Source: a virus
Lineage: Duplodnaviria > Caudoviricetes
Virus record (IMG/VR): IMGVR_UViG_3300028048_000038
Span: 32,001-96,000 of that record
Strand: one strand, 5' to 3'
Length of the DNA stretch: 64,000 nt
Each line of letters begins with the position of its first letter. Position 1 is the first letter of the stretch. Below, piece after piece: positions 12,196-57,528 of this stretch. Made by a program: the position numbers and the translations under genes. Below the pieces are notes generated by a model. The model had not been told where the DNA came from, did no database searches, and was given only the letters and a program-made list of their open reading frames with translations.

Positions 12196-12333
12196 AATCT
12201 AATCTCCTATCCTTTTATTATTTTGATGCAAAGATACGAAAAATAAATGAATCTACCAAAAAAATTAGTGAGAAATGTCTGGATTCTAACAATCTTTAAC
12301 ATTTCCCACCTTAAAAGGAGATTAAAAAGCGTG

Positions 12334-12427
12334 TAGGCGAGGGGGGACTCGAACCCTCCATAGGACTTACTTTTATGCCCATTGGTTTTTAAGACCAACT
12401 TGTCTAACCTAGTTGCAACACTCGCCC
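12334..12427 (-). tRNA. tRNA-Leu(TAA), class II, CCA not encoded
   Basis: GGGCGAG/CTCGCCT acceptor stem, A73, TTGGT-CTTAAAA-ACCAA anticodon arm, long variable arm, GGTTCGAGTCC T-loop. Confidence 0.92.
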
Positions 12428-39241: not shown

Positions 39242-39770
39242 AATTTTTATTTTTTAGTGATAGTCATTACAAGTTTATCTCCTATTTCTAGCTCATTGGT
39301 GAGTGTTTGCCCAAATTTATTTAAATCAGAATCGCAGATGGCAATTGTTCTGGCTCCCATTTTGCTAACCACTTCTGCATCAAATGTGTAAACTTTATTT
39401 TTATCCATATTATCTATTTTTGCTGCAAAGATACGAAAAAAAATTGAGTTGACCAAATGTCAACCCAACTTTTTAACAGAGTTTAACCTAAACAATTTAA
39501 GTTCTTCAAGCCATCTAGCCAATTGAAGATGGTCTTCAGCGCATCCTTTAATTGAACAAGTAATAGCTTTTTCCTTGCAATGAGCTATTGCTTCATCCAA
39601 TGTCATTTTCATCAATATTTTGATTGGTCTGTCAACGCTCCACGTTTACATCTTCTTTCAGGTGTTAAATGTGAATAACCAAAATAATGACGATACCACT
39701 CTTCATGCCTTCTAATTTCTTCTTTTGTCATGATAGTTAAAAATTTTAAAATTAAACAATAAAAAAAAAT

Positions 39771-39924: not shown

Positions 39925-41082
39925 ATGAAGAAAATACATATAAGGGAAAGTAAGCTAAACGAGATATACAGCGAGAAAGAATTCTGTGCTGGAACTGACC
40001 ATCCATACTATGAGAATGAGGAAACTGGAGAAGTATATTCTGCTGATTGGAATAGTGACTATGGTTTTCCCTTTGGTTTTTGGCCAATAGATTACAATCG
40101 CAATGAGAAATTTGTTCTTGGAGAGGCTTATACAACTCATGGTGATGCTTGTGGACAATGTGCTCAAGAATATGTGACAGACATACTCAGTGAGAGATTG
40201 GGTGAACAAGCACAAGAGATTGAGACTGCTTTCGAGGACTTTGTTGACGAGTTCAAGGAATATGGCTATAAGTTGAATGATGAGGATGGAAACTATTATT
40301 CCTCTGATGGTAGCGAGGTTAAGGATGAATGGGATTTCATAAATCAAGTTAATGATTATATTTCCGATTATGCTGTTGATTCCACAGAATATGTTGGCGA
40401 GCTTGTAAGGTCATTCCTTGAAGATGGTGTTGTGCCTTATGCTAGTGACATTGAAAAGCAATTATATGAGTTGGTGAGTGATAACTTCGATTTCACAACA
40501 CAGCAAGGTGTTACTAATGCATTGAGAGGAATTGACATGGATTTCTATGAATACTTCGAAATGGGAAATGGAGAAGGTAGAGTATGGCCATATAAAGAAA
40601 TGATTGGATTCTACGAGAGTGAACAACCAAGTCCAGATAGACTTGAAGAAATTCTATATAATATACAAAACAACGGAGGACCAAGTGTGCAAGACATGTT
40701 GCAGTACCACATGGTGTTCGAGGATTGGAGAAATGATGGAACTATAACAGCTTGTACGGTGCAAGATTACATTGATGGTAACTACGGACCAGAATCATAT
40801 GAGGATTTGGACGATGAGGATGATACACCAATCCAATATAACAATGGTCAAAAGACTATCTTTGTCCCTCACTTGGCAAATCAGCAAGACAAGTTCAATT
40901 ATTATAAAGACTTTAGAAACACAAGGGATAGGGCTGTGTATGCTCCACAAGAACGTGCAGCTGGTAACTTAGCAGCTTATCATGCAATGCGATATCCATA
41001 TGGTGAATCAAAGGATAGAATTGGAAAGATAATAAGAGAGGTTATTGAGGATACAATAAAAATGGGACTATATACTTGTTGA
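39925..41082 (+). CDS. acidic protein, possibly virion-internal
   Basis: 385 aa, very D/E-rich; I.ES.L and IIREVI segments at the termini; TATTTATA upstream. Confidence 0.75.
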   Translation: MKKIHIRESKLNEIYSEKEFCAGTDHPYYENEETGEVYSADWNSDYGFPFGFWPIDYNRNEKFVLGEAYTTHGDACGQCAQEYVTDILSERLGEQAQEIETAFEDFVDEFKEYGYKLNDEDGNYYSSDGSEVKDEWDFINQVNDYISDYAVDSTEYVGELVRSFLEDGVVPYASDIEKQLYELVSDNFDFTTQQGVTNALRGIDMDFYEYFEMGNGEGRVWPYKEMIGFYESEQPSPDRLEEILYNIQNNGGPSVQDMLQYHMVFEDWRNDGTITACTVQDYIDGNYGPESYEDLDDEDDTPIQYNNGQKTIFVPHLANQQDKFNYYKDFRNTRDRAVYAPQERAAGNLAAYHAMRYPYGESKDRIGKIIREVIEDTIKMGLYTC

Positions 41083-41119
41083 CTCTAAATAGTATTTTTG
41101 TATATCAATGCATATTTAT

Positions 41120-41197
41120 TAATATCGAATTTCTTTAGATATTTTGTAATCATTCTATAAATGAGCAATCACTCAACTGTGGTTGCTCATTTTTTAT
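41120..41197 (+). ncRNA. putative antisense RNA / leader complementary to the start of the DGR target gene
   Basis: 41125-41153 pairs with 41269-41291; hairpin 41159-41192 plus U-tract. Confidence 0.55.
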
Positions 41198-41268
41198 CTA
41201 TTACCTTGTATTTTTGTAATTGAGTTAATAATTATTATTAACTAATTAATATAAACAATATATAAACT

Positions 41269-41976
41269 ATGATTTACTTAAAGAAATTTGAAACAACAAG
41301 TCAGTATAATGCTTACACAGCAGATACTGCAAACTTCATTAAACCTAATGTATCTCTCATCACTGAGACAAATACAGTGGAGTATAACCCATTGGTAATA
41401 CCGCCAACACCACCAACGCCTTCACACGATTATGTTGAAATTGGTGGAATTAAATGGGCAACAATGAACATTGGTGCAGAGAGTGTAACTGATGGAGGAT
41501 TATACTTCTCATGGGGCAATGTTGAAGGTCATGCAAAGGACAGTGGATATGACTTCAGTCAAGCCACTTATGATGGTACAAGCGGTGCAACATTGAGTGG
41601 TGATATAACTGCTGATAGTGGTTATGATATGGCAAGAGAGAATTGGGGTGGTGATTGGAGACTTCCAACAATGGCAGAGACAACAGCCCTTGTAAATGCC
41701 ACAACGAGTGCATGGACAACAGATTATCAAGGAACTGGTGTTAGTGGACTTGTGTTGACTGATAAGACAGATAGTTCAAAGGTACTGTTCTTTCCAGCCG
41801 TTGGTAACTACTATGGCGCTGCGCTCTACAATGAGGGCAGCGGTGGCTGCTATTGGTCAAGCAGCTTCGGCAGTGCTACCAATGCCTACCGCTTGAACTT
41901 CAATAGTTCGGGTGTCAACCCCCAGTACGGCAGCGGCTACCGTTGCTACGGGTTCTCAGTGCGTGCTGTTCAGTAA
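41269..41976 (+). CDS. C-type-lectin-fold (DUF1566/Fib_succ_major-like) protein with DGR-like variable region
   Basis: WATMNIGA, YFSWG, WRLPT, FFPAVG, YWSSS, GFSVRAV motifs; NNC/NNT-rich C-terminal segment. Confidence 0.85.
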   Translation: MIYLKKFETTSQYNAYTADTANFIKPNVSLITETNTVEYNPLVIPPTPPTPSHDYVEIGGIKWATMNIGAESVTDGGLYFSWGNVEGHAKDSGYDFSQATYDGTSGATLSGDITADSGYDMARENWGGDWRLPTMAETTALVNATTSAWTTDYQGTGVSGLVLTDKTDSSKVLFFPAVGNYYGAALYNEGSGGCYWSSSFGSATNAYRLNFNSSGVNPQYGSGYRCYGFSVRAVQ

Positions 41977-42006
41977 CTCATTGTTTCATAAACTGTACAG
42001 AAACAA
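41803..42006 (+). other. putative DGR variable region with downstream hairpin
   Basis: GC-rich codon run (tac ggc agc ggc tac cgt tgc tac); TTGTTTC/GAAACAA inverted repeat 41981-42006. Confidence 0.7.
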
Positions 42007-42009
42007 CTC

Positions 42010-42052
42010 AAAAAAGTTCGCCCAAAGCGCAAGCTACAAGCGAACTTTTTTT
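42010..42052. terminator. bidirectional intrinsic terminator
   Basis: AAAAAAGTTCGC/GCGAACTTTTTT between convergent genes. Confidence 0.8.
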
Positions 42053-42154
42053 CATGTATGTATAATTACACAATGACAGCACATCATTATAGTCAAAGTG
42101 CTTGCATGCCTTCTCTTCCTTGAGTATATCGTTCCCTATAATAAAAATGGGAGA

Positions 42155-42541
42155 CTAATCGACAAATCTCCCATTTTTTGTTAATATACCTTTCTTTCTA
42201 TTGTAGAGATATCCGTTTTTCTTCAACAAATTTATAAATCTAGTATATTCCCTAACTGTGGGCAATTCAAAGACATCTTCTTGGTTTCTATGAATAGGGT
42301 CATGACCATTTCCTCTCAGCATCAAGTCACTATCTATATACTCACCATTTCTACGACTTCGGCTAGGTCCTAGATTGGTGACATAGAGTTTGCAACCAAG
42401 AAAATATGAATGATTTTCAATGGAAAGTGGTTGTAGCCTATCCATTATAATGAATATGGATTCATCTTCATATTTTGGTGTTCTCACCATCCTTATCTTA
42501 TAACCTTCATTCATGATTTTCCTTTCCATGTTTATTCTCAT
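42155..42541 (-). CDS. hypothetical protein (C-terminal LL...YN.KK family)
   Basis: LLKKNGYLYNRKK. Confidence 0.7.
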   Translation of the reverse strand: MRINMERKIMNEGYKIRMVRTPKYEDESIFIIMDRLQPLSIENHSYFLGCKLYVTNLGPSRSRRNGEYIDSDLMLRGNGHDPIHRNQEDVFELPTVREYTRFINLLKKNGYLYNRKKGILTKNGRFVD

Positions 42542-42637: not shown

Positions 42638-42934
42638 TCAAACTTTTTTGAATGTTTTAACAAATTCCCTCTTATGTAACGAATGAATATCGCCTTTAAA
42701 GGCATTTTTAAGCTCTCTGAGGTCATTAATCACTTGCCCATTGATAGTTATCCTACCGACCATTGTTTTGCAGCCAAACGCCTCAGGATTGACTCTAATC
42801 ACCTCTACGACAATCATCACGCAGAAGTATGTTATGCTTCTGAATGTATATGTCAGTTTATGGTTTCCTCTTTTCACTGTGAAGCCATAGAACCCTTTTT
42901 GGTTGAGTATATTGCTGATATCCTTGAAATTCAT
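42638..42934 (-). CDS. hypothetical protein
   Basis: Promoter at 42936. Confidence 0.6.
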   Translation of the reverse strand: MNFKDISNILNQKGFYGFTVKRGNHKLTYTFRSITYFCVMIVVEVIRVNPEAFGCKTMVGRITINGQVINDLRELKNAFKGDIHSLHKREFVKTFKKV

Positions 42935-42977
42935 GGTGCAAAGATACGAAAAATATTTGGAATAACCAAATTTCTTT

Positions 42978-43822: not shown

Positions 43823-44497
43823 TTAATTTAATGTATTATTATATGACCATATAAAGCCCTTATGGTGTTTATATTTTCCGCTACAGCACAGTGATACGCA
43901 AGCTGCTGAGAACCCTTCTTTTTCAGTGGTTTTTATACCCTCCCATTCCTTAATGAAGTTTCCTTCTAGGTCAAATTGATAGACAATCTTTTTCTTTCTT
44001 CCATTCTTTGTTCTAGGATAGAGTTTTTGGCTTCTCTTGAACTTCTCGATTGTCTCTTGTTTATTCAAGTTATCCTTATGTGTCGTTAGATACAAGTTAT
44101 CCAATGAGTTATTCTCAGTGTTGCCATCCCTATGGCACACTATAAATCCGTTTGGTATTTCGCCATTGAATGCTGTCCATACCAATTGATGAACGTAGAA
44201 GTGTTTTGCCTTTACGTTTTCATTGGAAAGAGAAACATGCGGATATTTGGTTGAAGGTGTCTTGCTTGGTTTGAGTTCCTTTCCGAATTTGTTAAGGACT
44301 ATTCCCTTGTTATTCACCTTATAGTTCTCGAAATTAGGAATAGGCTTCCACTCTTCATCATTCAGAAGGGCAGAAGCTTCTTCCATTCTTTTAGCTGTAA
44401 CTCTTTCTTGGTATCTTTTCCTTGCTGTCTCTCTAATTTTCTCCTTATGGGTTTGATACCAACTAGAGTTATTTGTATTTTGTTCCCTTTTCATCAA
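43823..44497 (-). CDS. NUMOD4-HNH-NUMOD1 homing endonuclease
   Basis: EEWKPIPNFENYKVNNKG, VHQLVW.AF, VCHRDGNTENNSLDNL, VYQFDLEGNFIKEW...GFIW. Confidence 0.88.
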   Translation of the reverse strand: MMKREQNTNNSSWYQTHKEKIRETARKRYQERVTAKRMEEASALLNDEEWKPIPNFENYKVNNKGIVLNKFGKELKPSKTPSTKYPHVSLSNENVKAKHFYVHQLVWTAFNGEIPNGFIVCHRDGNTENNSLDNLYLTTHKDNLNKQETIEKFKRSQKLYPRTKNGRKKKIVYQFDLEGNFIKEWEGIKTTEKEGFSAACVSLCCSGKYKHHKGFIWSYNNTLN

Positions 44498-57420: not shown

Positions 57421-57444
57421 TTTGCCTACATTAAAAAACCATAG

Positions 57445-57528
57445 AGACTGGGGTGGGATTCGAACCCACGTACCTTTACGGCCAAAGCTTTTGCAGAGCC
57501 AGGCGTTTGACCACTCCGCCACCCAGTC
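57445..57528 (-). tRNA. tRNA-Cys(GCA) with atypical long variable arm
   Basis: GACTGGG/CCCAGTC acceptor, U73, loop CTGCAAA, 15-nt variable region, GTGGG-TTCGAAT-CCCAC. Confidence 0.85.

Follow-up and report, generated by a model that had tools for sequence, protein, structure and literature searches.

A putative inverted gene-start relic at the edge of a mobile binding-protein cassette in a large rumen phage

The stretch of DNA analyzed here, in the following called the window, comprises 64,000 nucleotides and corresponds to bases 32001-96000 of the complete, 409,537-bp virus record IMGVR_UViG_3300028048_000038, a rumen phage with a genomic G+C content of 35%. Our subject is a short piece of its plus strand (41125-41153) that lies between two genes, here designated A and B, and is complementary to the translation start of gene B. 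The first-pass annotation had regarded this piece as an antisense RNA directed against gene B or against paralogs with the same YLKKF N-terminus. According to our comparisons, the piece is probably an inverted relic that is not under selection and belongs to the edge of a mobile cassette for a binding protein. It would represent a recombination scar, in which the first ~13 codons of a 'YLKKF' cassette gene, together with a few bases in front of them, are present in inverted and decayed form. The 5' edge module of the 1.07-kb cassette would hold this scar, with the end motif on one side and the stem-loop on the other. The comparisons point to an inverted gene fragment without conservation, and this is the very outcome that the first-pass annotation had named as speaking against its own proposal.

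The sequence itself is as originally described. The piece reads TCGAATTTCTTTAGATATTTTGTAATCAT and is the reverse complement of ATGATTACAAAATATCTAAAGAAATTCGA, i.e. of a start of the MITKYLKKF type, and gene B, the product of which begins with MIYLKKFE, starts 115 nt downstream (41269). Positions 41125-41138 can form 14 contiguous pairs, including two G-U pairs, with positions 41278-41291 (codons 4-8 of gene B), and this is the longest helix found. The terminator behind the piece could likewise be confirmed (a hairpin at 41159-41192 with 14 pairs, followed by a T-run), as could the short gap that separates it from the piece and the TATTTAT sequence at 41113-41119.

Gene B is located within an insert of 1.07 kb (41068-42136) at the end of gene A. 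The corresponding site is empty in six related contigs (two 412-kb phages and four contigs), where gene A abuts a convergent gene and gene B is absent. The in-silico removal of 41068-42152 from the window restores the sequence of these relatives, including the gene A end ..IKMGD and the two-way terminator, and DNA contigs of an independent sequencing run end exactly at 41067 and 42137. Both ends of the insert carry a motif, GGGAACGATATACTTGTTGAC, in inverted orientation, and are accompanied by a direct repeat. The length of this repeat is 12-16 nt, its extent being ambiguous because target and element both read GGGA. The cassette 41068-42136 is thereby shown to be an insertion into the A-run ahead of the terminator of gene A. 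It is now the stem-loop of the cassette at 41159-41192 that terminates the gene A transcript.

The strongest evidence for a relic comes from contigs in which gene B is likewise present at the end of gene A. L043 and L044 contain a gene B that is 85% identical to that of the window, in the same synteny and with the same right junction. Nevertheless, both of them, as well as two further contigs of this kind (L052 and L053), have neither the end motif on the left nor the piece nor the hairpin of the cassette. In L043, L052 and L053, gene A retains its ancestral end and terminator, and the homology to the window resumes at ..ACCTTGTATTTTTGTAATTGAGTTAATAAT. Since these sister contigs keep gene B without the piece, the piece is dispensable for the maintenance and, presumably, for the expression of gene B. 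The absence of the piece extends to the genome itself, where a paralog of gene B exhibits an upstream region with a promoter box and a palindrome as found for gene B but without an antisense piece. Five other cassettes also do not contain such a piece, and the longest helix between their 5' module and their own gene start comprises 8-9 pairs, which equals the genome background. The expectation that each YLKKF gene is preceded by an RNA of this kind is therefore contradicted by the paralog, by the five other cassettes and by the four sister contigs alike.

The origin of the piece can be traced by its similarity to the gene starts of the cassette family. Its reverse complement has an exact 18-mer, AAAATATCTAAAGAAATT, in common with the starts of the sister alleles in L052 and L053 (ATGGGAAAATATCTAAAGAAATTTGAG), and an alignment of 38 nt between the piece and the beginning of a G001 cassette gene shows 76% identity. 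Judged from these alignments, the similarity of the piece to gene starts is to be regarded as homology and not as chance. On the minus strand, hairpin, TTATAGA, ATG, ..KYLKKF.., stop and end motif follow each other in this order, which makes the segment look like a miniature cassette with its body deleted. The distance between the start of the end motif and the hairpin is 54 nt in three canonical 5' modules, 68 nt in L051 and 98 nt in the window (L045 has no hairpin). We also considered the left part to be a full, inverted second cassette, but rejected this, since only the first ~13 codons and the end motif are recognizable and no extended similarity to the N-terminal module was seen past KYLKKF. 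A stub in direct orientation, MKYLRLFNNHEEYLEYIASEEFVVPSVQVFPL (MKYLRLFNNHEEYLEY.., 32 amino acids), exists in L031, where it separates two cassette genes arranged in tandem and precedes the one at G001:141.3k. This stub is either another relic or a small protein that consists of the N-terminal module alone, and it suggests that stubs of gene starts are a recurrent by-product of shuffling.

We infer that the piece arose during frequent shuffling of cassettes by recombination at the common N-terminal and edge modules. It would be without a selected role and would merely travel as a passenger in the 3' untranslated region (UTR) of gene A, and its ability to pair with both gene B and the paralog would be a by-product of the common descent of these gene starts. 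The cassettes may move by transposition or by recombination.

The cassettes form a family. In the complete genome, the motif GGGAACGATATACTTGTTGAC is present in three copies only, namely at both ends of the insert (inverted) and in the 3' flank of the paralog, where it reads TAGGGAACGATATACTTGTTGAC. Seven related viral contigs contain between one and five copies each, mostly as inward-facing inverted pairs 0.9-2.4 kb apart, and a reversed control pattern gave 0 matches in the related contigs. An inspection of ten copies from eight loci revealed ~30 conserved bases followed by a hairpin and a T-run. Short, A/T-rich direct repeats are located outside four of the motif pairs, and they often correspond to the T-run of a neighboring terminator. 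Each motif pair examined encloses one gene, whose product starts with M(A/K/S)(I/V/L)YLK(K/Q/E)F and with a module of ~40 residues ending in ..PNVS.....V.YNP. This N-terminal module (M..YLKKFET..Y......PNVSL....V.YNP) was identified in at least 11 genes from five phage contigs. The domains behind it vary (lectin-like, BspA-type leucine-rich repeat (LRR) and Big_2), and the module is probably a common, putative docking part. At the site of the gene B cassette, L051 possesses a different cassette, which has a canonical 5' module and a product starting with MAIYLKKFETQ.... Among close relatives, this site at the end of gene A is empty, filled or otherwise filled, and it is a hotspot for cassettes.

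In the canonical copies of the motif, TTGACA-N17-ATAAAT is conserved with respect to both hexamers and the length of the spacer. As a promoter, the end motif has a second hexamer that is poor compared to the sigma-70 -10 consensus, it shows no fit to the Bacteroidota -33/-7 type, and the copy in the window is degenerate. Among the mobility genes looked for in the genome, there is no serine recombinase (resolvase), one tyrosine recombinase and two TnpB-like genes, and none of them showed a link to the motif.

These short cassettes, flanked by inverted repeats and inserted at A-runs by terminators in very large rumen phages, carry ligand-binding proteins of lectin-like, BspA-type LRR and Ig-like character. 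The family provides a concrete model, open to testing, for the exchange of candidate host-binding parts among such phages, and its shuffling would account for stubs of the shared gene start in intergenic DNA. We regard it as a more interesting outcome than an antisense RNA.

The most serious alternative to a relic is an antisense RNA that is functional, transcribed as part of the gene A 3' UTR or from a promoter of its own (box TATTTTTG, 41093-41100) and terminated at 41159-41192. In both gene B and the LRR paralog, the codons next to the AUG would be bound by the single-stranded 5' portion of this RNA, which would thereby lower their translation, while on a rare read-through RNA the start of gene B would be locked in cis. 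In evolutionary terms, a flipped gene-start stub would have been captured as a small antisense RNA that damps every binding-protein gene with the YLKKF module. If this were true, one RNA would set the dose of interchangeable binding proteins of the lectin and LRR types, and the case would clearly exemplify how a recombination scar can give rise to a regulator. We consider such a function unlikely, and a capture of this kind is equally doubtful.

For the predicted pairing, the starts of 492 long open reading frames (ORFs) of the genome served as background (mean -9.1 kcal/mol, standard deviation 2.5). The 29-nt core pairs with the start of gene B at -16.3 kcal/mol (rank 5 of 492) and with the start of the paralog at -17.7 kcal/mol and with 15 contiguous pairs (rank 4 of 492). 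Three unrelated genes pair better with the core than both of them. In a corresponding test in cis, in which each start was compared to its own 220 upstream nucleotides, a helix of at least 14 pairs was found in 8 of the 492 genes, and the duplex energy of gene B ranked 141 of 492. Consequently, the pairing with gene B is above average but not exceptional. The helix is rich in A-U and G-U pairs, and A-U-rich helices are common in this genome because of its G+C content of 35%.

Several observations nevertheless weigh against a mere relic. The translation starts of both YLKKF genes are found at ranks 4 and 5 among 492, and when a hypothetical read-through RNA (41105-41330) is folded, the long-range 14-bp helix is present in the minimum free energy as well as in the centroid structure. 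When 41105-41200 is folded, most of the seed region remains unpaired. In addition, the position of the piece is precisely that expected for the production of an RNA, namely between the stop codon of gene A and a strong terminator directly 3' of it, and just 3' of the promoter-like 11-mer GTATTTTTGTA (41092-41102), which is duplicated in this region. Since the only terminator after gene A lies beyond the piece, the latter would be transcribed at least as gene A 3' UTR. A contig of run X4 (record 16), which originates from an independent study, spans 40592-41331 with ~90% identity and without a large gap, so that a single assembly artifact does not account for the arrangement. Finally, a relic can be co-opted, and its absence in sister contigs does not prove a lack of function in this genome.

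There are, however, more arguments against an antisense RNA than the missing counterparts in the sister contigs, in every other cassette examined and at the paralog, and the better pairing of three unrelated genes. The box TATTTTTG, which is contained in the 11-mer and matches the Bacteroidota -7 box TAnnTTTG, has no -33 element at proper spacing in either of its two copies, as the direct reading of the sequence revealed, and a scan for sigma-70 promoters found nothing at 41093-41100. Exact-word scans of viral and metagenome collections, as well as protein look-ups of relatives of gene A and gene B, yielded no copy of the piece with which covariation could be assessed. The proposal of a small RNA acting in trans on YLKKF paralogs is correct in that such a paralog exists (504 amino acids, LRR) and pairs slightly better than gene B, but conservation is lacking. 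On present evidence, the antisense RNA does not qualify as a new regulator of phages.

RNA libraries were viewed as Logan contigs, in which a hole proves nothing and in which DNA is possible. The libraries X2 and X13, which derive from one sample, contain contigs at 39944-41100, 41256-42004 and 41306-42200 with 100% identity to the window; none of their contigs crosses 41101-41255, which in itself is uninformative. In a phage collection searched with blastn in distant mode, 40800-41500 remained without a match, and an Rfam scan of the window returned one transfer RNA (tRNA) only.

The layout of the putative RNA resembles that of well-known phage regulators. The sar RNA of phage P22 is a phage antisense RNA that masks a translation start. 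The C4 RNA of the phages P1 and P7, which shares an operon with icd/ant and is encoded ahead of them, prevents their expression (PMC8198154). In these systems, as in the arrangement considered here, a short upstream RNA of the same strand is complementary to the region of the translation start of the downstream gene. In contrast to the piece in the window, C4 and sar are conserved and experimentally shown regulators of immunity genes, whereas the piece is unconserved, its RNA is putative, and the target would be a binding protein of structural type.

A second alternative is an invertible switch. In this case, the inverted arms 41125-41141 and 41278-41295 would flank a segment of ~115 nt with the terminator, the gene B promoter and the palindrome, and a flip would turn gene B off. 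The putative host group is known for invertible promoters, and fimS-type and Bacteroides invertible promoters would be comparable. The inverted repeats do bracket a promoter-bearing segment, and one tyrosine recombinase is encoded in the genome. However, the arms match at 14 of 17 nt only and are interrupted by a 6-nt indel, while the sites of known invertases are near-perfect. The gene of the tyrosine recombinase is ~335 kb away at the end of the genome, a serine recombinase is absent, and the left arm is missing in the sister alleles. No opposite-strand joint at 41140/41280 was detected in the contigs examined, though contigs drop rare forms. A switch of this kind is very improbable. Even less credible is a real gene for a micro-protein of 22 residues on the minus strand (41153..41085), since its ATG-started open frame of 22 codons begins only 7 nt from the hairpin without a promoter or ribosome-binding context, ends at the cassette end motif, has no clear match to the N-terminal module past KYLKKF and has no copy elsewhere in viral and metagenome collections.

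The first-pass annotation had also designated gene B as the target gene of a diversity-generating retroelement (DGR). Such targets are variable proteins with a C-type-lectin fold, and there is indeed some likeness, as gene B gives a weak match to Lcl_C (28 bits, under the Pfam cut-off of 34.9 bits) and its relatives carry the label TIGR02145 in one source. However, the complete 409,537-bp genome gave no match to the reverse transcriptase family RVT_1, for which control genomes were positive, and a blastn search of the insert against the genome detected no second copy of the 3' part of gene B (41800-41976), i.e. no template repeat. Because the genome contains neither a reverse transcriptase nor a template repeat, the label had to be given up, and gene B does not function as a DGR target here.

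With regard to mobility, the cassettes may be compared to two known types of elements. In T4-type phages, promoter-early stem-loop (PeSL) motifs, which are small, conserved and composite, flank variable genes and lie where insertions, deletions and swaps between close relatives begin and end (Arbiol et al. 2010, PMC2839356; Comeau et al. 2014, PMC4122927). The modules of motif and hairpin described here mark such borders as well, as is evident from the empty sites, the swap in L051 and the contig breaks at 41067/42137. PeSLs are, however, described as sites of homologous exchange, whereas the motifs of the cassettes are inverted and have short A-rich direct repeats on their outside, which is more transposon-like. 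Moreover, the promoter within the motif is only a candidate here, the host group is another one, and the cargo consists of binding proteins with a common N-terminal module. The second comparison concerns elements similar to miniature inverted-repeat transposable elements (MITEs), with which the cassettes have in common terminal inverted repeats of ~21-25 nt, junctions with short direct repeats, the presence of several copies in a genome, the lack of an internal transposase and empty sites in relatives. In contrast to MITE-like elements, no matching transposase was identified in a search that was aimed only at resolvase, tyrosine recombinase and TnpB-like genes, and the direct repeat of 12-16 nt is long. 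The features of the cassette and of the related loci are listed in Table 1.

Table 1 Features of the gene B cassette, its surroundings and related loci (positions in the window unless stated otherwise)
Feature	Position	Strand	Remarks
Gene A, 385 aa (amino acids)	39925-41082	+	no family match; last codons ..IKMG-LYTC before the stop, altered by insertion; relatives ..IKMGD or IKMED
Left 16-nt direct repeat TACAATAAAAATGGGA	41052-41067	.	looks like a target-site duplication
Left inverted end GGGA-CTATATACTTGTTGAC	41064-41083	+	degenerate copy of GGGAACGATATACTTGTTGAC
5' edge module, continuation	41084-41111	+	homologous to 'acaaaataacgttcttacataaatataca' of canonical copies
Extra ~47 nt	41112-41158	+	in no other cassette module; core is the anti-'YLKKF' piece 41125-41153
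Minus-strand ORF, 22 codons, MITKYLKKFDINKYALIYKNTI	41153..41085	-	stop 3 nt from the left inverted end
Intrinsic terminator hairpin and T-run	41159-41192	+	14 pairs, 5 G-C; stem-loop of the cassette 5' module
Second copy of GTATTTTTGTA	41208-41218	+	probable -7 box of the gene B promoter; conserved in sister alleles
Imperfect inverted repeat, core TTGAGTTAATAATTATTATTAACTAA	41211-41255 (core 41220-41245)	.	24-49 nt upstream of gene B
Gene B, 235 aa	41269-41976	+	~40-aa N-terminal module 'M..YLKKFET..Y....PNVSL....V.YNP' and lectin-like C-terminal domain
Two-way terminator	42010-42052	.	A6, stem GTTCGC...GCGAAC, T7; sequence read directly
48-nt segment	42067-42114	.	81-90% conserved in cassette 3' flanks of three other phage contigs
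Right inverted end TAGGGAACGATATACTCAAG	42119-42138	-	inverted copy of the left-end motif
Right 16-nt direct repeat TATAATAAAAATGGGA	42137-42152	.	continues into the ancestral gene A end (..IKMGD)
Ancestral terminator GGGAGA..TCTCCC	42149-42172	.	right direct repeat extends into it
N-terminal module sites	41269-41400; genome 403516-403380; L029-L034, L042, L051
Cassettes flanked by inverted GGGAACGATATACTTGTTGAC(ACAA)	41064-42152; L034 4302-6770; L042 4060-5806; L037; L051 1196-
Paralog, 504 aa, MKYLKKFETTAQYEAY	genome 403516..402002		BspA-type LRR; same YLKKF N-terminus
Promoter-like motif, highly conserved	about 30 sites, e.g. 39410-39456, 42923-42969	-	plus strand prints TGCAAAGATACGAAA..N..CCAA

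The upstream regions of gene B and its paralog are similar in further respects. The 11-mer GTATTTTTGTA has four occurrences in the whole genome, and the box of the paralog reads TATTTTTT. The palindrome between box and start codon is present upstream of the paralog as TTGAGTCAATAATAATTATTGACTAA (genome ~403538-403563), with a T>C exchange on one arm that is compensated by A>G on the other, and it occurs in L047, too. It could form a 5'-UTR hairpin or serve as an operator. L047, an ENA contig of another phage, to be compared with 402002-403600 of the genome, possesses a lectin-like protein of the gene B type (83% identical) behind an upstream region of the paralog type. This arrangement indicates that the two loci exchange their C-terminal domains.

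The stretch is contained in sequencing runs of bovine and goat gut from several studies. More than 30 copies of a promoter-like motif match the Bacteroidota -33/-7 type, and the motif reads TTTGG..N..TTTCGTATCTTTGCA on the transcribed strand. The match of this motif to -33 TTTG and -7 TAnnTTTG fits a host from the Bacteroidota group.

Some additional observations concern recombination and mobility in this phage. A DNA contig of X3 joins 41104 to 42103 on opposite strands, which is inconsistent with a simple inversion between the end motifs. The first and the last 100 bases of the genome (1-100 and 409438-409537) are exact inverted repeats, an identity that is not kept at 200 bases. The only tyrosine recombinase gene found in the genome (421 amino acids, 408900-409352) adjoins this right end, and the two TnpB-like genes are located elsewhere (138051-138254 and 296756-296956). 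The window also encodes a free-standing HNH homing endonuclease (NUMOD4, HNH_3 and NUMOD1; 43823-44497, minus strand), which has a YqeY-like gene and an M42 aminopeptidase gene as neighbors and occurs in the sister contigs as well. Moreover, ARAGORN predicts two long tRNA genes in the window, tRNA-Leu(taa) with 95 nt (12333-12427) and tRNA-Cys(gca) with 85 nt (57444-57528, minus strand), of which Rfam reports the second only.

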